Shown here in pieces: positions 1 through 26,517 of a stretch of 26,517 bases of DNA. Numbering within the stretch: position 1 is the first letter of the stretch; each line of letters starts with the position of its first letter. Under the pieces are notes generated by a model. That model was not told the origin of the DNA and ran no database searches. It saw only the letters and a list, made by a program, of their open reading frames with translations. Location: IMG/VR virus record IMGVR_UViG_2778261459_000001, positions 1 to 26,517 of that record; one strand, written 5' to 3'. A program made the translations under genes and the position numbers. Source of the DNA: a virus. Taxonomy: Duplodnaviria; Heunggongvirae; Uroviricota; Caudoviricetes.

Positions 1-11
1 TGGGATATCCG

Positions 12-383
12 GTGGCTAAGATATCGTGCGAGGAAATGACAATGGATTATTCACAGTTAAGTGATTTTGAAATTAACAGAATGGTAGGAGACATAATTTT
101 TAAAGGCCTTTGGGCAAGTAAACCGGAAACATCAGGGAATAACACCAACAAATGGTATTACGGAAATGCTGATACAACTTTTGAGCCATTAAATCATTTG
201 CCTGACTACTGCAATGATCCGAGCGCTTCATGGCCGATTATTGAGAAATACAGGATTTCTATCTTAGACCAGTTAACTGAATGGTGTGTGGATGCAAAAG
301 GCGTAAGCCCAATATTTGATACCAGACCTCTCCGCGCCGCCATGATTGTCTTTCTCCTGATGCAGGAGGCCAATAATGCTTAG
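12..383 (+). CDS. nin-region hypothetical protein (tentatively DUF2591/NinX-like); probable true start at ATG 42
   Basis: Long ORF in the same orientation as rusA/Q. GAGGAA at 30-35 sits 6 nt before ATG 42 ([13 protein letters not shown]...). The frame has no stop between window position 3 and 12, so the gene could begin upstream of the window. Family assignment is from memory only. Confidence 0.5.
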
Positions 384-570
384 CCCATCTCAATCCCTTC
401 AATACCTGAAAGAAAGCATAGAGCGGGCTTCAATGTGCACAGAGTGGATTCTATCTAGGTTTAGCGCATACAGAAGATTGCCGGTAAAGAGCATGCCAAG
501 CAAGTCGATGCTGCATATGCAAAAGAATGCGCGCTGGAAGGTATGGCGAGAACACAGGTTATGTGGCTAA
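376..570 (+). CDS. hypothetical small basic protein (64 aa); possibly a chimeric ORF created at a mosaic junction
   Basis: ATG 376 is preceded by AGGAGG (363-368) at 7 nt spacing and overlaps the stop of the upstream ORF (ATGCTTAG). No family recognised. Its 3' part overlaps, in another frame, the conserved ybcO-like tail. Confidence 0.3.
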
Positions 571-593
571 AAGAGGGGGTTATTAAGGCGTGA
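465..593 (+). pseudogene. ybcO: ybcO-like (DUF1364) 3' remnant lacking a start codon
   Basis: Frame 0 between in-frame stops at 456-458/462-464 and TGA 591-593 translates to ...[26 protein letters not shown], which I recall as the C-terminus of DLP12 YbcO. There is no ATG/GTG/TTG start for a full-length protein. Its stop overlaps the rusA GTG start, the conserved ybcO-rusA junction. Confidence 0.4.
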
Positions 594-952
594 ATACCTA
601 CAGCATCACATTACCCTGGCCTCCGAGCAATAATCGCTATTACCGCCATAATCGCGGGCGCACGCACGTCAGCGCAGAGGGGCAGGCATACCGCGATAAC
701 GTCGCCCGAATCATTAAAAACGCAATGCTGGATATCGGCCTGGCTATGCCTGTGAAAATCCGCATTGAGTGCCACATGCCGGATCGCCGTCGCCGTGACC
801 TGGATAATCTGCAAAAAGCCGCTTTTGACGCACTCACTAAAGCAGGTTTCTGGCTGGATGATGCTCAGGTCGTTGATTACCGCGTTGTGAAGATGCCTGT
901 TACCAAAGGTGGGAGGCTGGAACTGACCATCACCGAAATGGGGAATGAATGA
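590..952 (+). CDS. rusA: Holliday junction resolvase RusA (crossover junction endodeoxyribonuclease)
   Basis: 120-aa translation [24 protein letters not shown]...[10 protein letters not shown] matches my recollection of E. coli RusA essentially throughout. GTG start overlaps the upstream stop. Confidence 0.93.
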
Positions 953-1089
953 TGTTTGAGTTTAATATGGCAGAACTTCTTCGCCACCGCTGGGGGCGTC
1001 TGCGCTTATATCGTTTCCCCGGTTCTGTTTTGACCGATTACCGAATACTGAAGAATTACGCCAAAACCCTGACAGGAACAGGAGTATGA
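949..1089 (+). CDS. ylcG: small phage protein YlcG (46 aa)
   Basis: ATG 949 overlaps the rusA stop (ATGA). Translation [46 protein letters not shown] matches the DLP12 YlcG peptide from memory. Below the ORF-track size cut-off. Confidence 0.7.
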
Positions 1090-1174
1090 AGTCAGAGATA
1101 ACAATCAACTAATACTGTTTTGTTGATTTTTGCTTGTAATTGGCGTTCTGGTCTGATTTTTGTGGAGTAAGTTG

Positions 1175-1558
1175 ATGCGTGATATTCAGATGGTTCTTGA
1201 GCGTTGGGGTGCGTGGGCGGCTAATAATCATGAAGATGTGACCTGGTCGTCCATTGCCGCCGGTTTTAAGGGATTAATTCCTTCAAAAGTAAAATCTCGC
1301 CCGCAATGTTGTGACGATGACGCGATGATCATTTGCGGGTGCATGGCCCGTCTGAAAAAGAACAACAGCGATTTACACGATTTATTAGTAGATTATTATG
1401 TATGTGGTATGACATTCATGTCACTGGCAAGTAAGCATTGCTGCTCGGATGGTTATATCGGGAAAAGGTTACAGAAGGCTGAGGGCATAATTGAAGGGAT
1501 GTTAATGGCATTAGATATCCGGTTAGATATGGATATCGTTGCTAATAATTCTAATTGA
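1175..1558 (+). CDS. quuD: late-gene antiterminator Q (QuuD type)
   Basis: Translation from ATG 1175 ([24 protein letters not shown]...[11 protein letters not shown]...) matches DLP12 QuuD from memory. Position between rusA/ylcG and the lysis genes is canonical for Q. The track's 1160 start is a TTG extension. Confidence 0.9.
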
Positions 1559-1590
1559 TATGCAATTGTTTACTAAAAGTTATTAAAAAT

Positions 1591-1608
1591 GGGGCGTGGA
1601 AACGCCCC
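1591..1608 (-). terminator. hairpin GGGGCGT-GGAA-ACGCCCC with T-run on the minus strand (candidate nmpC terminator)
   Basis: 7-bp GC stem; on the minus strand it is followed by ATTTTTAATA. Lies downstream of the nmpC stop. Confidence 0.35.
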
Positions 1609-1695
1609 CAAAATAAAGGGTAATATATAACAGAAGGTTTATATAGTAAGAAGCAAGGTAGTGCTTCTAAAGGAAGTGGCTTGAGGGCTCCACTT

Positions 1696-1736
1696 ATATG
1701 TTGCGGAGGCAAAGCCTCCCGCAACATATCTTTTTC
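1696..1736 (+). terminator. strong rho-independent terminator (15-bp perfect stem, AAA loop, CTTTTTCG tail)
   Basis: ATATGTTGCGGAGGC-AAA-GCCTCCGCAACATAT followed by CTTTTT on the plus strand. About 140-180 nt downstream of the Q stop, so a tR'-like or early-right terminator; also abuts the nmpC stop. Confidence 0.55.
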
Positions 1737-1746
1737 GTAAGTCAGA

Positions 1747-2829
1747 TTAGAACTGATAAACCAGACCTACAGCGACGATGTCGTCGGTATCAATACCAGC
1801 TGTTTTGGTAAACTTACTATCGTCAATTAAGTTGATTTTGTAATCAACAAAAGTAGACATGTTTTTATTAAAGTAGTAAGTAGCACCGACATCGACATAC
1901 TTGACTAAGTCTCGGTCACCATGAACACCAAGGTCTTTACCTTTTGACTGAAGGTAAGCAACAGATGGGCGCAGACCGAAGTCAAACTGATATTGTGCTA
2001 CTGCTTCAAAGTTTTGTGCTTTGTTTGCAATATGGTTATTACCAAAAACGGTCATATTCTGAGTTTCAGAATATGTGGTAGCCAGATAGATATTGTTCGC
2101 ATCATATTTCAGGCCTGCAGCCCATACTTCCGCATTTTTGCCGGAGGCATTGAATTTGCTCTTACCATAGGCGACCTGACCGTCAGTGCGATCTGATTTA
2201 GCATAGGTTGCACCCACGCCGAATCCTTCATACTCATAAGTAGTGGAGAAACCGAAACCATCACCATTGGCTTCAGTTACGTCAGTGCGGTCATTTTTAC
2301 CCTGATACTGAGCAGCAAAGTTCAGGCCATCGACCAGACCAAAGAAGTCGTTGTTACGATAAGTTGCAACACCAGTAGTGCGACCAGTCATGAACACATC
2401 TGTTTGGGTCCAGGTATCACCACCGAATTCTGGCAGAACGTCAGTCCACGCACCGATGTCGTATGCTACACCGTAGTTACGGCCGTAATCGATGGAGCCG
2501 TAATCACCAAATTTCAGGCCTGCAAATGCAAGACGGGTTTTGTCTTTGGAAGAACCTTGAGATTCAGCACGGTTGCCTTTGAATTCATATTCCCACTGAC
2601 CGAAACCAGTCAGTTGATCGTTGATTTGGGTTTCACCTTTGAAGCCAAGACGGGCATAAGTAGTATCACCATCATCTGCATCATTAGAGGAGAAGTAGTG
2701 CTTGGCATTAACTTTCCCGTATAGATCCAGCTTGTTACTGTCTTTATTATAAATTTCAGCTGCCTGAGCAGACATCGCCATCAGTACTGATGCAGCTACA
2801 GCAGAAATTGCCACTGTTAATTTTTTCAT
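1747..2829 (-). CDS. nmpC: outer membrane porin, OmpC/OmpD family (NmpC / phage Lc-type), apparently intact
   Basis: Translation from ATG 2829: signal peptide [23 protein letters not shown], then mature [16 protein letters not shown]... ending ...VAVGLVYQF (C-terminal Phe typical of 16-strand porins). The track ORF 1747..2889 includes a 20-codon upstream extension. Confidence 0.9.
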
Positions 2830-3255
2830 TGTACGCCCTTTTTTTGAACTATTATTAAAAAATGATGTCACTGCGCGATAAATATTCATCTAATCAATGT
2901 GATTATTTCAAGATGTAAGTTTTAGTTTCTCATTTAATTTGTGAAGTAGATCTCTATTTTTATCTGAACCTTTTCTATCTAATCCTATTCATGGCTCTTG
3001 TCTGAACAAAAATAAATCTATTAGCTAATTTATATTAATGGCACTTATTTATAAGTGCTCTATAATTCTTTAGCTTAATTTGAACAAACTAAAAATAACA
3101 TCAGAAATTATTAACTGGTTATTTGTTGAAGTTTTCTTATGCATTTGTGGTGGTGTTTTGAACACTCGGTGGCATTCTCACAAATATCATTTAGTAGTTT
3201 ACGTACGTAAAAAATTGGTTATGCTGTTAAGAGTGGTTACTTCGTCACACAGCTT

Positions 3256-3289
3256 AAACCCGCCGTCGAGCGGGTTTTTCCATTTTTTG
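3256..3289 (+). terminator. hairpin AAACCCGC-CGTCGA-GCGGGTTT plus T-run, about 130 nt upstream of the holin gene (candidate tR'-like late terminator)
   Basis: GC-rich stem followed by TTTTCCATTTTTT on the plus strand, inside the AT-rich nmpC-essD intergenic region. Confidence 0.4.
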
Positions 3290-3417
3290 AGTCTCGATAT
3301 TAGCTGATAACTCAATACCTGAGTTATTCACTGACTCCAAATCTGTTACGTTTCTGCCTTTATTGCGATACGTAGTATCCCCTTAATTTACACCCGCTTT
3401 GTCTGCGAGGTGGGGTT

Positions 3418-3633
3418 ATGAAATCCATGGATAAGTTAACAACGGGTGTCGCCTATGGTACCTCAGCAGGTAGTGCCGGGTACTGGTTTTTACAGTTGCT
3501 CGATAAAGTCACGCCCTCACAGTGGGCGGCAATAGGTGTGCTGGGTAGCCTGGTATTTGGCCTGCTGACGTACCTGACAAACCTTTATTTCAAGATTAAA
3601 GAAGATAAGCGCAAGGCTGCGAGAGGTGAATAA
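3418..3633 (+). CDS. essD: class II holin / pinholin (phage 21 S-type)
   Basis: 71 aa, [31 protein letters not shown]...[32 protein letters not shown]: two hydrophobic segments and a charged C-terminus; resembles the S21 pinholin / DLP12 EssD from memory. SD GAGGTGGGG precedes the start. Confidence 0.9.
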
Positions 3634-4130
3634 TGCCTCCATCATTACGAAAAGCCGTTGCTGCTGCTATTGGTGGCGGAGCAATTGCTATAGCATCAGT
3701 GTTAATCACTGGCCCAAGTGGTAACGATGGTCTGGAAGGTGTCAGCTACATACCATACAAAGATATTGTTGGTGTATGGACTGTATGTCACGGGCATACA
3801 GGAAAAGACATCATGCTCGGTAAAACGTATACCAAAGCAGAATGCAAAGCACTCTTGAATAAAGACCTTGCCACTGTCGCCAGACAAATTAACCCGTACA
3901 TCACAGTCGATATACCGGAAACAACGCGCGGCGCTCTTTACTCGTTCGTCTACAACGTGGGTGCTGGCAATTTCAGAACATCGACGCTTCTTCGCAAAAT
4001 AAACCAGGGTGATATTAAAGGCGCATGTGATCAGCTACGGCGCTGGACATACGCTGGCGGTAATCAATGGAAAGGACTGATGACTCGCCGTGAGATTGAG
4101 CGTGAAGTCTGTTTGTGGGGGAAACAATGA
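3633..4130 (+). CDS. rrrD: SAR (signal-arrest-release) endolysin, lysozyme family
   Basis: 165 aa. N-terminal Gly/Ala-rich weakly hydrophobic segment ([20 protein letters not shown]) typical of SAR domains, followed by a lysozyme-like core. Start overlaps the holin stop. Confidence 0.9.
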
Positions 4131-4588
4131 GCAGAGTAACCGCGATTATCTCCGCTCTGGTTATCTGCATCATCGTCTGCCTGTCATTGGCTGTTAATCA
4201 TTACCGCGATAACGCCATTACCTACAAAGCCCAGCGCGACAAAAATGCCAGAGAACTGAAGCTGGCGAACTCGACAATTACTGACATGCAGATGCGTCAG
4301 CGTGATGTTGCTGCGCTCGATGCAAAATACACGAAGGAGTTAGCTGATGCGAAAGCTGAAAATGATGCTCTGCGTGATGATGTTGCCGCTGGTCGTCGTC
4401 GGTTGCACATCAAAGCAGTCTGTCAGTCAGTGCGTGAAGCCACCACCGCCTCCGGCGTGGATAATGCAGCCTCCCCCCGACTGGCAGACACCGCTGAACG
4501 GGATTATTTCACCCTCAGAGAGAGGCTGATCACTATGCAAAAACAACTGGAAGGAACCCAGAAGTATATTAATGAGCAGTGCAGATAG
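4127..4588 (+). CDS. rzpD: i-spanin Rz (inner membrane spanin subunit)
   Basis: ATG 4127 overlaps the endolysin stop (ATGA). N-terminal TM segment ([20 protein letters not shown]), then a charged coiled-coil-like periplasmic domain. Confidence 0.85.
4347..4529 (+). CDS. rzoD: o-spanin Rz1 lipoprotein, embedded in the +1 frame of Rz
   Basis: 60 aa, [24 protein letters not shown]...[15 protein letters not shown]...: lipobox VVGC and a proline-rich mature part, entirely inside the Rz gene in another frame. Confidence 0.85.
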
Positions 4589-4619
4589 CGCTGCCCATAT
4601 CGATGGGCAACTCATGCAA

Positions 4620-4913
4620 TTATTGTGAGCAATACACCCGCGCTTCCAGCGGAGTATAAATGCCTAAAGTAATAAAACCGAGCAATCCATTTACGAATGT
4701 TTGCTGGGTTTCTGTTTTAACCACATTTTCTGCGCCGCCACAAATTTTGGCTGCATCAACAGTTTTCTCCTGTCCAATTCCCGAAACGAAGAAATGATGG
4801 GTGATGGTTTCCTTTGGTGTTACTGCTGTCGGTTTGTTTCCAACAGTAAACGTCTGTTGAGCACATCCTGTAATAAGCATTGCCAGAGCGGCAGAAAACA
4901 ACATTTTTTTCAT
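4620..4913 (-). CDS. borD: Bor lipoprotein (serum-resistance lysogenic conversion protein)
   Basis: 97 aa from ATG 4913: MKKMLFSAALAMLITGCAQQTF... (lipobox LITGC). Opposite strand to the late operon, as in lambda. Track ORF 4620..4961 includes an unlikely upstream extension. Confidence 0.9.
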   Translation of the reverse strand: MKKMLFSAALAMLITGCAQQTFTVGNKPTAVTPKETITHHFFVSGIGQEKTVDAAKICGGAENVVKTETQQTFVNGLLGFITLGIYTPLEARVYCSQ

Positions 4914-5093
4914 CTTATTATCCTGCATTGTTAAAAACGGCAGAATCCTATGTGACAACAATTAAACGATAGTTAAATGGATTGATGAAAATTAAAACTA
5001 TATAGGTGTACGGTCAGACTATTGGAGGTAGTCAGGATTTGAATGTCAGTCTGTTGTCGGCATTCTGGCAATGCAATTTGGATAAAGCGGGGA

Positions 5094-5216
5094 TTAAAAA
5101 GATAGAGGCGAGCCGGTCAGGTAGAAATGAATCAGGCTCAAAGTGAAGCGGAAAAGGTCTGTGGTACAAGCTGATGCAGCCATAATTACAGCCTGATGAT
5201 TTGTGGAATGAAACAT
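5094..5216 (-). CDS. hypothetical 40-aa peptide with canonical Shine-Dalgarno (MFHSTNHQAVIMAASACTTDLFRFTLSLIHFYLTGSPLSF)
   Basis: Minus-strand ATG 5216..5214 is preceded by AGGAGG (plus-strand CCTCCT 5223-5228) at 6 nt spacing; stop at 5096..5094. Below the track cut-off. No homology recognised. Confidence 0.3.
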   Translation of the reverse strand: MFHSTNHQAVIMAASACTTDLFRFTLSLIHFYLTGSPLSF

Positions 5217-5438
5217 GTTGAACCTCCTTAATTGATGTTATTCGAGTGATGAAGGCATTCTGTCCTTCTATAGTGTCCAGTAAATCAAACAGGAAACTTG
5301 TCCAACGTGTTGGACAAGCCTCTCCATTAGTGAGTTGTATTGATCACAACTCTACAAAGAATTCATTACTGGGTAGATGAAAATAGTTTCACGATGAATG
5401 GAGGAGGCTATGTCGGTGGCTTCTTCATTGGAGTACAT

Positions 5439-5789
5439 ATGCCATCACGAATCCCAAAAGCCTGCCGTGTTCGTGGCTGCCGCCATACCACCACAGACCC
5501 GTCAGGCTATTGTGAAAGCCACAAAAGCGAAGGCTGGAAGCAATACAAGCCAGGACAATCCCGTCATCAGCGCGGTTATGGTTCGAAGTGGGATGTTATC
5601 CGCGTGCGTGTGTTGAAGCGTGACAAAGGCCTGTGTCAGTTATGTCTGCGTGCTGGTGTGGTGCGTGAGGCGAAAACCGTTGACCACATCATCCCTAAAG
5701 CGCATGGCGGCACTGATGCCGACTGTAATCTGCAGAGTCTGTGCTGGCCGTGTCATAAGGCGAAGACGGCCCGTGAACGACTTAAGTGA
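5439..5789 (+). CDS. HNH endonuclease (packaging-associated, HK97 gp74-like position)
   Basis: GGAG 7 nt upstream of ATG 5439. Translation contains CxxC...CxxC and H-N-H elements (CQLCLRAG...VDHIIPKAHGG...NLQSLCWPCH). Sits immediately upstream of the terminase small subunit. Confidence 0.85.
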   Translation: MPSRIPKACRVRGCRHTTTDPSGYCESHKSEGWKQYKPGQSRHQRGYGSKWDVIRVRVLKRDKGLCQLCLRAGVVREAKTVDHIIPKAHGGTDADCNLQSLCWPCHKAKTARERLK

Positions 5790-22773: not shown

Positions 22774-23787
22774 ATGCATCGTATAGACACGAAAACCGCG
22801 CAGAAGGATAAGTTCGGCGCGGGTAAGAACGGTTTTACCCGTGGTAACCCCCAGACCGGCACACCTGCCACCGATCTGGATGATGACTACTTTGACATGT
22901 TGCAGGAGGAACTTTGCAGCGTGGTGGAGGCATCCGGTGCCAGCCTGGAGAAGGGGCGGCACGACCAGTTACTTACCGCGCTTCGTGCGCTGCTGTTAAG
23001 CCGCAAGAATCCGTTTGGCGATATCAAATCGGATGGCACGGTGAAAACGGCTCTCGAAAACCTTGGTTTATCAGACGTTTTACATAAGGGAAATTTTGGT
23101 GTCGGGAGTAGGCTGCAAGGTAGTGCAGCCGGGAATAGCCATGTCGGTGGATTCATGTATGAACCATATCAGGCGAACAATCTTTACCCGCTAAGTGTGG
23201 CTTTAATGCAGGCAGCAGGCCCGACATCGACAGAATGGGCGCAGCTGGCTGTTTCATATGGTGGGGCATTCAGAGCTTTCCTTGGGCGACAGACTTATAA
23301 TGGAAATCCTGAAATCAGTGAGTTGTACCATGACCAGCGTAAGCCGTCTGCGTCGGATGTTGGTGCCCAACCTCTGAATGCAACTCTCACCACTCTTAGT
23401 GGAAAAGATGCGGCAGGATTAAGGAGCGTCCTAGGGCTTGGAACAACAGCCACAAGAAACGTAGGTACGGGAGCGTCACAAATACCTGATATGAGTTCGT
23501 TTTTAAGCGGATCTACAGCATCAGCTTTTTGGTACAAACTTCCTGGTGGCATGGTGGTGATGGGGGGTAATGCATCTGGAATCGCCTCTGGAACTGCAGG
23601 TAATGCGGTCTTCTTCCCAGTGCCATTCCCAAATGTTTGCTCAAGCGTTGTCGTGACATTAGTCAGCAACGGGTTATATGCCGACACAGTCTCGTTTAAT
23701 ACATATATCCCTGGAACTGACCGTTTTAACGTTTATACGAATACAAGCGGCACGTACGCTATTTATTACCTGGCGTTTGGGAGTTGA
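22774..23787 (+). CDS. tail fiber protein with conserved N-terminal anchor and divergent, lower-GC C-terminal domain
   Basis: 337 aa. N-terminus [55 protein letters not shown]... is the conserved baseplate-attachment region of this fiber family. DNA composition becomes AT-richer from about 23040 onward. Confidence 0.8.
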
Positions 23788-23788
23788 T

Positions 23789-24205
23789 ATGAACAATTAC
23801 GTATGGTCAGCATTACATGTTTCATTTTTCCCTAAGGCGATGTTGCAAGATTATGAATCTGCCGGATGGAATCTTTCCGATGTGGTGGATGTTGTTGATG
23901 ACATTTTTCAAACATACAGATCAATGCCACCAGAAGGTAAAATTCTTGGGGTTGTTGATGGCATGCCTGCATGGATTGACAAGCCGCCAGTGCCAAATAG
24001 CGTGTTGCTTTCAGACGAACTTGCGCGGCTTGCATCAGAATATAAAAATGACAGAGTTCAATTGAATGACGCATACGTTGCGGCAATGGTAAGCGATGGT
24101 CCATTAGAGCAAACTAAGCAGCAGGCGGTGAGGGATCAAATTGTTCAAAGAAAATCTCAGTACACAGCAGATATAGCTGCAGCAAAATTAAAATATCCCA
24201 TTTAA
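23789..24205 (+). CDS. tail fiber assembly protein (Tfa/Caudo_TAP-like)
   Basis: From ATG 23789 (MNNYVWSALHVSFF...): motifs ...AGW..., PPEGK and DGMPAWIDKPP typical of tail fiber assembly chaperones; directly follows the fiber gene. Confidence 0.7.
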   Translation: MNNYVWSALHVSFFPKAMLQDYESAGWNLSDVVDVVDDIFQTYRSMPPEGKILGVVDGMPAWIDKPPVPNSVLLSDELARLASEYKNDRVQLNDAYVAAMVSDGPLEQTKQQAVRDQIVQRKSQYTADIAAAKLKYPI

Positions 24206-24215
24206 GGTGGACATC

Positions 24216-24380
24216 ATGGAAACACAATCAAACGAAGAACAAAAACAGAGCCAGCAACAGCAGGATTCTACCGTAAAATTCTGTCCGATATGTGGCTCAA
24301 CAATGCATCAGCAAGATTATCTGAATGGGAAATGGTGGTTTTGTGATGATGAAGAATGCGGGTTTTTTGAGCCCGTCTAA
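24216..24380 (+). CDS. small zinc-ribbon protein (54 aa, CPICG...x16...CDDEEC)
   Basis: AAGGTGG SD 5 nt before ATG 24216. METQSNEEQKQSQQQQDSTVKFCPICGSTMHQQDYLNGKWWFCDDEECGFFEPV has four Cys in two pairs. Below the track cut-off; followed by a terminator. Confidence 0.5.
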   Translation: METQSNEEQKQSQQQQDSTVKFCPICGSTMHQQDYLNGKWWFCDDEECGFFEPV

Positions 24381-24402: not shown

Positions 24403-24433
24403 AGCCCTCTCTGGAGGGCTCATATTTATTTTG
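24403..24433. terminator. bidirectional terminator (AGCCCTC-TCTG-GAGGGCT flanked by T-runs on both strands)
   Basis: Between the convergent zinc-ribbon gene (+) and acyltransferase gene (-); followed by CATATTTATTTTG on the plus strand and TTTATTCC on the minus strand. Confidence 0.5.
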
Positions 24434-25508
24434 CGTATTTCTTTCTAAACCCAAGAAATGGCTTTTCAATCAACTCAAAACATATCTTAGAAAAGATAAG
24501 AATTGCAGGTAGTAAAATCAAAAAATTAATGACAGCATTAACATTATCATTGTCGATAAACCTCGGAACTCCAAATGTTTTATGGAATGAGTAAAGAACC
24601 ACACCATGCAATATATATTCAGAAAAGCTTACCTCACCAAGTTTAGATAATCCATTATCTATAATGGCAGGTATTTTTATGCTTGACGATAAGTAAGTAA
24701 ATACAAAAATACCCCACATGCAAGCCTCCAGATATGATAAAGAACTTACATATGGTGTTGGAATGTACCATAAACCCTCAGATCTAAGTGTTAAAAGAGA
24801 AAAGAAGACAATTGCAGAACTGGCGATGATAAAGATCGGATTAGCGAATTTATCCTTATGGTTTATATATAGATATCCAAACACCATCCCAATTAATAGC
24901 TGATCAAATCGACCAAGCATTGTTAAGTAGTAATAATGATTGTTCAGATATGAATCCGACCCTAATTCCCCACCATAGATTGTAACGATCATGGTTCTCC
25001 AGGCAAGCCAAAAAAGAGACAGATACACAATATACTTCACACCATATCTGTTAAGAAAAAGAGCTAGGAAAGGAAATATTAAGTAAAATTGAAATTCTAC
25101 TGCTATAGTCCACGTTTGCCCGAAATGAGCCAGCAACGGTGATGTTTGCAAATTCGAGAAAAGGAACAAGGATAAAGCATCAGAAAATGTGGCAGTACCT
25201 CTAGATAGAGACATGGCGGTAATCCATGCTACAGAAAGGAGTGGGAAGATGCGAATAAATCTATTGAAGATAAAAGGCTTATAAGAAATATCCTTTTTTC
25301 CGCCATTCGATATGATGGTGAATAGAAATCCACTAAGCACCAAAAATAGCGTAACTCCAGTATCACCAGCAAGCATGAAATTTATAAATGGATTGTTCGA
25401 TTTCTTTCCTCCGAACGCCGTATAAGAATGAACAAAAACAACAAATGTTGCTGCAAAAAAACGAAGGTGGTCAATCCTTGACAGGTATTGTGAGTTTAGA
25501 CTTTTCAT
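24426..25508 (-). CDS. integral membrane acyltransferase, family 3 (Oac/OafA-like O-acetyltransferase)
   Basis: 360 aa, about 10 predicted TM segments. N-terminal signature RIDHLRFFAATFVVFVHS (Arg...His motif of the acyltransferase-3 family). Gene is strongly AT-rich relative to the flanking phage genes and is divergently oriented. Confidence 0.85.
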   Translation of the reverse strand: MKSLNSQYLSRIDHLRFFAATFVVFVHSYTAFGGKKSNNPFINFMLAGDTGVTLFLVLSGFLFTIISNGGKKDISYKPFIFNRFIRIFPLLSVAWITAMSLSRGTATFSDALSLFLFSNLQTSPLLAHFGQTWTIAVEFQFYLIFPFLALFLNRYGVKYIVYLSLFWLAWRTMIVTIYGGELGSDSYLNNHYYYLTMLGRFDQLLIGMVFGYLYINHKDKFANPIFIIASSAIVFFSLLTLRSEGLWYIPTPYVSSLSYLEACMWGIFVFTYLSSSIKIPAIIDNGLSKLGEVSFSEYILHGVVLYSFHKTFGVPRFIDNDNVNAVINFLILLPAILIFSKICFELIEKPFLGFRKKYAK

Positions 25509-25665: not shown

Positions 25666-25953
25666 ATGGGGTTCCCGTCGCCAGCGGCAGACCACATTGA
25701 AGAGCACATATCACTCGATAAGCGCCTTATCGCACATCCTTCTTCCACGTATATGATGATATCCGGAACGACATACCTTCGAGCCGGAATCATGAAAGGA
25801 GCCATGCTCATCGTCGACTCATCGCTGACACCAAAAGATGGCTTCCTGCTTGTCTGTGCGGTTGATGGTGAGTTCAGGATCATGCGCTACAGGACACATC
25901 CTCAACCTTGCCTTGAAAACCCTGAAAATGGGAGGGGGGAGCCGTTACTGTAA
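25666..25953 (+). CDS. UmuD'-like (HumD-like) protein, S24 peptidase fold with substituted catalytic dyad; C-terminally short
   Basis: From ATG 25666: [38 protein letters not shown]...[22 protein letters not shown]... aligns to E. coli UmuD from Gly25 ([37 protein letters not shown]...LLIVDS...AAVDGEF). The UmuD GDSM Ser position is Thr (GTTY) and the Lys position (VKKL) is Met/Arg (IMRY). About 20 C-terminal residues are missing relative to UmuD'. Confidence 0.65.
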   Translation: [95 protein letters not shown]

Positions 25954-26027
25954 GTATCCCGCATAATCGTGCCATTCATATTTAGAGATCATCCGGCATA
26001 ATCAATCTGGCAACAAAGGAGATCGCT

Positions 26028-26169
26028 ACGCATAAAGCCCGTTTTACTGAGCATCAGATCATCGCTGTGATTAAGTCAGTTGAAGCCAGACGAACCGTTA
26101 AAGATGTCTGCCGGGAGGCCGGTAACTCTGAAGCCACCTACTACAACTGGAAGTCCAGATACGGCGGCA
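26028..26169 (+). mobile_element. IS3-family (IS407-group-like) transposase OrfA 5' fragment, start codon degenerate (ACG), truncated after the HTH
   Basis: AAGGAG SD, then ACG where ATG is expected. Translation (T)[46 protein letters not shown] matches the OrfA HTH motif of IS3-family elements from memory (MKKRFTEQQII...SFYTWRAKFGGME). Similarity ends abruptly at about 26170. Confidence 0.5.
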
Positions 26170-26256
26170 TGGAAGACATATCGGGTATTGCTGAACCGGG
26201 TTGATACATCAGTAGCACCGAATATTGAGTGGCCTGCAGAACCAGGCACAATGTAA
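26164..26256 (+). pseudogene. tail fiber assembly protein (tfa) 3' remnant
   Basis: Frame +1 translates to ...[30 protein letters not shown], the conserved C-terminal signature of Tfa proteins (lambda Tfa ends ...[29 protein letters not shown]). No corresponding N-terminal part upstream. Confidence 0.6.
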
Positions 26257-26517
26257 GCGAAAAATGAAAACCGTAGCACGTCGTATGCAAGATCGTGCGC
26301 GGCTGGCTGGTGAACTTCCGATAGTGCGAGTATTGAATTATTTCCAACTGTTATCGATTTTGCGTATTTTTTGCATGAGAGGATTTTTACCTCCTCCCAC
26401 CGATCCTCCATGGCTTTACGCCAGTGTCTCTGGTCTGCTATGTGCCAGGAGCAGCCATTGCTAAGTCCATCCTGTATTGTGCAGGTCAGCTCGTTTTTAA
26501 AGAGTCCGGCCATCATC

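Follow-up and report, generated by a model that had tools for sequence, protein, structure and literature searches.

Where do the novel joints of lambdoid phage genomes come from? Illegitimate recombination is a recognised source of such joints in these mosaic genomes, with RecET-type recombinases joining DNA at homologies of 5–13 bp (PMC2327257), and illegitimate recombination in E. coli resembles MMEJ (PMC11372144). The joints known from lambda Spi- and transducing-phage assays (RecET/Red, 5–13 bp) bring together unrelated sequences within a short identity. On the genome map, the lambda b region and the SfV/e14-type right arm (tail fibre, cargo, attP, int) provide the closest described counterparts of the locus reported here. 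Short C-terminal pieces of the tail fibre assembly gene tfa are likewise familiar from the ends of E. coli cryptic prophages, the one between yagU and ykgJ being Rfam IS009; E. coli K-12 has tfa pseudogenes, and AR435 also holds a partial tfa. The IS3-family element IS1400, finally, is listed within the pks island (PMC11707995), where a degenerate copy lies by clbA in E. coli Nissle 1917 and UTI89.

The locus lies at the right end of the window, by which we mean the whole stretch of 26,517 nucleotides that was analysed. The terminal 570 bases of the window are prophage debris without function, the kind of scar that genome shuffling commonly leaves in phages. They belong to a string of relics in the non-essential, b-region-like arm of a lambdoid prophage whose tail is Mu/SfV-like. 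The features are:

25666–25953, plus strand: truncated HumD/UmuD'-like (S24 family) gene, 94 of ~129 codons kept
25949–26175, plus strand: left 227 bp of an IS1400-like IS3-family element, from alignment to two IS copies
from 25949: left inverted repeat, TGTAAGTATCCCG..., read as TGTAAGTATCCCGCATAATCG... in the alignment
26016–26021, plus strand: Shine-Dalgarno sequence AAGGAG, 6 nt upstream of the start position
26028–26174, plus strand: orfA', 49 of 88 codons, start ATG changed to ACG (26028–26030)
26163–26175, plus strand: putative recombination joint, 13-bp microhomology GGCGGCATGGAAG, shared base for base by intact IS copies and intact tfa alleles
26164–26256, plus strand: lambda-type tfa 3' relic, last 30 codons and stop, in the +1 frame relative to orfA'
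26259–26464, no strand assigned: conserved ~200-bp non-coding element, from similarity to prophage copies
26433–26517, plus strand: internal part of a Qin-type ydfV without its first ~84 nt, 97.6% identical to K-12 ydfV
26441–26452, plus strand: putative second joint, 12-bp microhomology TGTGCCAGGAGC, from element copies aligned with K-12 Qin ydfV

Each described system matches part of this chain. Like the IS1400 copy by clbA, the window has the left inverted repeat, the leader and the 5' part of orfA, but it keeps the stump only, without right repeat (IRR) and orfB and with a mutated start. It shares with the cryptic prophages a short C-terminal tfa piece near a prophage end; there, however, the upstream partner is not an IS fragment reached through a 13-bp joint, and here the prophage looks complete. 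As in the phage assays, unrelated sequences are joined in a short identity, within the non-essential arm of a genome that encodes Exo and Bet, whereas the joint in the window is natural and fixed, and both its parents and the enzyme responsible are inferred. Compared with the lambda b region and the SfV/e14-type arm, the position on the genome map is the same, yet the cargo consists of an acyltransferase gene, humD', the IS stump and ydfV'-flxA instead of ea genes or pin.

Over 25954–26517, the region under study, the window is 100% identical to E. coli S1-INA-02-A (L001), in which PGAP already marks both the IS and the tfa piece as pseudogenes: ‘transposase, missing C-terminus’ (window 26022–26174) and ‘tail fiber assembly protein, missing N-terminus’ (window 26167–26256). 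This pair of pseudogenes in a near-identical genome, together with the Pfam matches described below, means that the junction is no chance resemblance. The original prediction, which had recognised here the relic of a junction where an IS3-family OrfA fragment meets, in another frame, the 3' end of tfa, is thus borne out in its core. The S1-INA-02-A prophage that carries the joint looks complete from int at thrW to the tail fibres and encodes Exo, Bet and Gam. Its attR, a 56-bp thrW repeat, lies ~1.2 kb past the window end and ~1.5 kb from the joint; in this closest genome the site falls in the non-essential arm, near attR. Positions 1–5446 of the window are largely unrelated to the S1-INA-02-A prophage and the rest is 97.6–98.9% identical to it; the window hence comes from another strain with a mosaic relative of that prophage.

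The leftmost relic is a cargo gene. Its 95-aa ORF scores 136.4 bits against the NCBIfam HumD model NF051876 (cut-off 120) while covering only profile positions 1–92 of 129, and 25666–25953 is accordingly assigned a HumD-family origin by profile, without being an intact member of that family; intact homologues have 129 aa in E. coli MB52 and 132 aa in phage HK639. The DNA alignment to the humD genes of both MB52 and HK639 ends at ...GTTAC (25948), and the IS starts at 25949. The TAA stop (25951–53) lies within the IS repeat, and even the final G of the last sense codon (CTG) is IS-derived. Because HumD homology breaks exactly at the left end of the IS and the stop codon is IS sequence, insertion of the IS after codon 94 truncated humD by ~35 codons and supplied its stop. 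That the IS might account for the truncation of the UmuD'-like gene had been anticipated, correctly.

The IS itself is recognised by comparison with two independent copies. Positions 25949–26175 show 96.9% identity to the opening 227 bp of a full copy on plasmid pOkiPb01676_1 and 92.9% to the copy beside clbA in E. coli Nissle. Both alignments begin exactly at 25949, although the left flanks of the two copies are unrelated to the window before that position, which identifies 25949 as the left inverted repeat; they end at 26175 (pOkiPb01676_1) and 26173 (Nissle). The 88-aa OrfA of the Nissle copy carries the UniRef name ‘IS1400 transposase A’, the full fused transposases of the cluster have 370 aa, and homologues of 25940–26175 occur in 759 E. 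coli replicons. In the window, orfA' matches Pfam HTH_Tnp_1 (PF01527; E=1.3e-15, 57.8 bits, residues 3–49 on profile positions 4–52 of 75), and its frame gives a weak match to an IS3 transposase model of NCBIfam. Its start reads ACG, as against ATG in both independent copies. An OrfA-like frame with a good Shine-Dalgarno sequence and ACG in place of ATG had been described beforehand and is confirmed in each respect. That the fragment is real also holds; its similarity was said to stop at ...YGG and in fact runs on through ...YGGME to 26175.

What remains of the element, then? The IRR, defined from the two IS copies, reads …CGGGTCTATTTACA in L005 and L006 (also given as …GGGTCTATTTACA) and is absent from the window and from the 12 kb to its right in S1-INA-02-A; within the same limits we found no IS sequence past nt 227, orfB included. 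A complete IS3-family element would have inverted repeats (5'-TG...CA-3') at both ends, an intact 88-aa orfA with its start, orfB, the DDE transposase gene reached by a programmed -1 frameshift, and a short target-site duplication around it; of the two ends, the window has lost the right one. A complete IS with both repeats and intact OrfA and OrfB, which would have overturned the idea of a relic, was searched for, and only nt 1–227 are present. With no IRR, no orfB and a mutated start codon, the stump cannot transpose.

The sequence to its right is the end of a tfa gene. The last 30 codons, closed by TAA at 26254–26256, match Pfam Caudo_TAP (PF02413) with E=1.9e-11 at profile positions 104–130 of 131, and are 86.7% identical to residues 165–194 of an intact 194-aa Tfa by tblastn, so that the Tfa C-terminus read beforehand in the +1 frame is well supported by alignment. 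Upstream tfa sequence, as part of a full-length ~190-aa Caudo_TAP ORF, was not found in the window. A prophage copy (L016) encodes the complete 194-aa Tfa, ending ...EEPDTM, and continues downstream with the sequence that also comes after the relic in the window. A megablast search with the 100 bp of tfa only returned just two genomes, its word size being too long; an exact 17-mer scan of IMG/VR was used instead and hit 42 contigs, in 41 of which the match lies in an intact tfa gene and in none of which an IS lies upstream.

How did these two pieces come to be joined? The OrfA and tfa similarities overlap by 13 nt (26163–26175), with unrelated sequence on either side. The IS copies read ACGGCGGCATGGAAGCTTCT across the joint, laid out as ...CAGATAC-GGCGGCATGGAAG-CTTCTGAT, and the intact tfa alleles of L016 and L025 read CTGGCGGCATGGAAGACATATCGGG, laid out as ...TCGTTACT-GGCGGCATGGAAG-ACATATCGGG. 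The 13 bp are thus identical in both parental types, as represented by proxies (other IS copies and other tfa alleles), and the flanks are unrelated; a random joint would show ≥13 bp of identity with a probability of ~1.6e-7. The tfa of AR435, reading GGCCGCATGGAAA, shares only 8 contiguous bp, and since the nearest full-length tfa alleles are merely ~87–88% identical to the relic, the overlap between the true parents could have been 8–13 bp. The breakpoint lies at IS nt 215–227, inside orfA and not at an IS terminus. An endpoint internal to the IS and within a 13-bp IS/tfa identity speaks for short-homology illegitimate recombination in which the IS took part only passively.

The original prediction had taken the junction as a signature of IS-mediated deletion, by which an older fibre/tfa cassette would have been removed, and the reasons for thinking so are easily seen: the junction contains part of an IS, and that IS disrupted the neighbouring humD. 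Adjacent deletions made by IS3-family transposases have IRL or IRR as their exact endpoint and spare the IS itself. The window shows neither: its breakpoint lies 227 bp into the element, which lacks IRR and orfB, and the 13-bp identity with tfa is neither needed nor produced by transposition. Action of the transposase is therefore highly unlikely here, while destruction of an older fibre/tfa cassette at the site is possible. Under short-homology recombination, everything to the right of IS nt 227 would have been lost or replaced through a crossover in GGCGGCATGGAAG. As for the enzymology, a single-strand-annealing recombinase of the phage, which encodes Exo, Bet and Gam, is plausible, as is replication slippage; transposition would not have been involved.

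The distribution of the joint speaks to its age. Among 5,426 complete E. coli genomes, 13 carry the humD' segment and 12 the IS'/'tfa joint, the latter in three chromosomal contexts: the complete-looking prophage of S1-INA-02-A at thrW, beside the pao genes; a rearranged DLP12-like remnant in NT1F10 (L002), which belongs to a clone from pigs and cattle, with attP and int coming after the relic as they would in a phage; and a prophage beside zinT in GPEC1031. The 34-nt joint sequence had no matches in the GTDB species representatives. In NT1F10 and ~10 relatives isolated from pigs and cattle, rusA abuts the 5' end of stfP (L002 2495–3123), the whole Q-lysis-head-tail region being deleted and the fibre-acyltransferase-humD'-IS'-'tfa block adjoining attP and int.

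All three contexts are identical across the joint to 26198, sharing 36 bp from the start of the joint (26163–26198); past that point they have three different tfa C-termini (one of them EWPVAPIG) and different downstream DNA. Given these three tails, one could argue for a recurrent hotspot, with the same 13 bp used independently in three lineages on three tfa alleles. The shared stretch makes this a very improbable course of events. Its haplotype, ...GACATATCGGGTATTGCTGAACCG to 26198, is found in 0 of 41 intact tfa alleles (from the 42 IMG/VR matches), and the combination GTATTGCTGAACCG within it is absent from all intact alleles recovered. The IS and humD sequences are also shared, including the ACG start and an I-to-N change: the stump is nearly identical in all copies, and the lineages differ only at a few sites in the humD region. 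The lineages start to differ only 24–34 bp past the joint on its right side, a pattern that later homologous exchange would be expected to produce. One haplotype through 26198 in all three contexts, unseen in intact alleles, indicates that the joint arose once and was then inherited, with homologous exchange inside the short relic swapping the tfa tails. At least three chromosomal contexts thus received the same joint, and exchanges in the relic gave each lineage its own tfa tail and downstream DNA. The region had also been read as the decaying edge of a prophage. This does not hold: a joint inherited in three contexts, one of them a complete-looking prophage, is an old scar in the equivalent of the phage b region and not a site of local decay.

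Could the scar have acquired a function? Conservation of the fragment in 12 genomes, the good Shine-Dalgarno sequence that is kept and a weak Rfam IS009 match at 26148–26213 might be taken to indicate a truncated HTH peptide from OrfA, a chimeric orfA'-tfa' small protein or an RNA under selection. We find this extremely unlikely. The start is ACG, HTH_Tnp_1 is cut at profile position 52 of 75 and the two frames differ; with the orfA start mutated from ATG to ACG and the fusion out of frame, no product is expected. Conservation reflects recent common descent, with the IS stump and the joint alike in all copies. Rfam scans of the region gave sub-threshold matches only, and an IS009 sRNA at the joint was rejected, its score (31 bits against a gathering score of 117) being explained by the Rfam model itself being a tfa relic.

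The IS009 family deserves a comment of its own. Outside the window, between yagU and ykgJ, L001 20144–20343 matches IS009 (RF02111, ‘candidate sRNA’) with 194 bits against the gathering score of 117, and the IS009 consensus encodes the Tfa C-terminus (...IAPLQDAVDL...AAWKKYRVLL...). Judged by its consensus, the family appears to be a relic of a prophage tfa gene and not a dedicated RNA gene.

The thirteenth genome with humD', FORC_082 (L010 5430–6208), represents a sister lineage without the joint. It shares the IS insertion in humD and the ACG start; its IS keeps both ends, has lost 424 bp internally and otherwise differs from the fragment in the window by 1 nt only. To the right of this IS lie gtrC (gtrC-like), yfdH, yfdG and intS, and no tfa. 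The DNA flanking its IRR (AACCCAG) is not the humD 3' end, which implies an earlier rearrangement at the right end of the IS; FORC_082 is hence an imperfect picture of the ancestor. Of what can be said in favour of a transposase-mediated deletion, this flank belongs here as well, in that an earlier rearrangement at an IS end may have happened in the lineage.

The current tail-fibre cassette of the prophage (22774–24205) is a mosaic. PGAP, in near-identical genomes, splits its 337-aa fibre ORF into a pseudogene, ‘stfP, missing C-terminus’, and a gp53-like protein, and the 175-aa chaperone encoded 3' of this ORF (23678–24205) has no Caudo_TAP match. It is thus unrelated to the tfa relic, which comes from a different cassette. 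Between the fibre genes and humD', the minus strand encodes a 360-aa acyltransferase (24426–25508; Acyl_transf_3, Pfam E=2.6e-30), in the position that O-antigen-modifying cargo occupies in serotype-converting phages; the FORC_082 copy of this gene carries an internal stop.

What, then, was the source of the tfa end? We favour an exchange of right arms between two phage genomes, in which the 'tfa-conserved element-attP(thrW) arm of lambda-like phages would have taken the place of a gtr-intS/argW-type arm like that of FORC_082. The right arm of the window (tfa 3' end, element, attP arm) is common to the thrW prophages L004 and L007, and it is for this reason that the arm swap is preferred over an internal deletion. 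The alternative uses the same microhomology: an ancestor in which humD::IS was followed on the right by another stf-tfa cassette, of lambda type, would have lost the intervening DNA by intramolecular deletion. Several observations agree with this. The native downstream element still follows the tfa relic, as in lambda-like prophages; tail-fibre regions often hold duplicated or alternative cassettes (L007, L008); and the current chaperone lacking Caudo_TAP places the relic in a different cassette. No ancestor of this kind occurs among the 5,426 genomes, however, the only sister lineage has gtr-intS and no tfa to the right of its IS, and the match of the right arm to other thrW-integrating prophages fits an arm swap. 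The two routes are indistinguishable on the data; we regard the intramolecular deletion as unlikely, although a real contender, and favour the arm swap. A direct precursor, with the complete IS in humD and its parental right flank, was not found among the 5,426 complete genomes either.

Taken as a whole, we consider the following history likely. An IS1400-like element inserted into the humD cargo gene after codon 94; recombination at a microhomology would then have joined the IS to tfa, preferably by way of an arm swap; and the joint spread from a single origin.

The final 260 bp of the window, previously left unassigned, can now be resolved into a conserved non-coding element and a fragment of Qin-type ydfV. 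Elsewhere, the ~200-bp element comes immediately after the stop codon of tfa (lambda-like prophages L004 and L016) or of pinE (e14-like prophages L007 and L008). The window copy is 93.7% identical to that of L007, 89% to L004 and 88% to L008, and 84.6% to the lambda b region (NC_001416) at 24169–24365, between ea47 and ea31. A core of ~90 bp (window 26277–26366) is 84–91% conserved across the tfa and pin stops, the lambda b region and a chromosomal copy in the ykgJ-ecpE spacer (L001 20757–20846). Variable sites of the element are distributed 13:12:9 over the codon positions and hence show no bias; a coding role of the core was rejected on this ground and because small ORFs are not conserved between copies, and the lambda imm21 ‘hypothetical protein’ was rejected as coding likewise. 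The ~220-nt element has no global fold on either strand (z-scores -0.8 and -0.9), and its only Rfam match is a weak one to CssrB (17 bits against a gathering score of 76). The only structure to stand out is a GC-rich 5' hairpin at ~26270–26302, weaker in the window than in AR435/L016-type copies (-13.9 versus -19.7 kcal/mol). In the latter, the hairpin is followed by UUUUUCUUUUU on the minus strand, an arrangement that looks like a leftward terminator. Scanning for consensus promoters and terminators returned nothing above shuffled expectation within the region under study.

Some 270 bp downstream of the first joint, the element is fused at the second, 12-bp identity to the 5'-truncated Qin-type ydfV. 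In S1-INA-02-A, ydfV runs past the window end into flxA, and the ydfV-flxA block of K-12 Qin matches L001 12480–13496 at 99.2% identity; what PGAP calls a ‘hypothetical protein’ across this second joint is truncated YdfV. Extension to the right, which the original prediction had proposed as a way to locate the remainder of the IS, an invertase or an attachment site, was possible in S1-INA-02-A: the attachment site was found, as the 56-bp thrW repeat of attR, and the IS remainder and an invertase were not. Neither the window nor the sequence to its right holds a pin gene or invertase, and no AAACC..GGTTT-type crossover site was seen by eye.

A more far-reaching reading would see in the tfa relic and the element not mere debris but a portable boundary, or homology ‘handle’, that closes the late operon: the hairpin may terminate transcription leftward, and the short conserved tfa tail may offer a patch for crossovers. 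Two observations are relevant here, namely that the joins to three different right arms all fall within 60 bp of the relic and that copies of the ~90-bp core persist from the lambda b region to the E. coli ykgJ-ecpE spacer. We hold this reading to be quite improbable. If true, unrelated tail modules could exchange cargo and integration arms through such a handle.

The locus is a new instance of well-known phenomena, and its pieces are already annotated as pseudogenes in reference genomes. It corrects the idea that an IS fragment at a junction speaks for transposase-mediated deletion, which it need not. It also calls for caution with annotations, as relics or truncated genes lie behind the ‘S24 peptidase’, the ydfV ‘hypothetical protein’ and the Rfam ‘IS009 sRNA’. 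The joint is usable as a lineage marker for this prophage family and, with an IS insertion, two joints of 12–13 bp within 300 bp and homologous exchange in a 90-bp relic, offers a natural example of how lambdoid phages reshuffle their arms.
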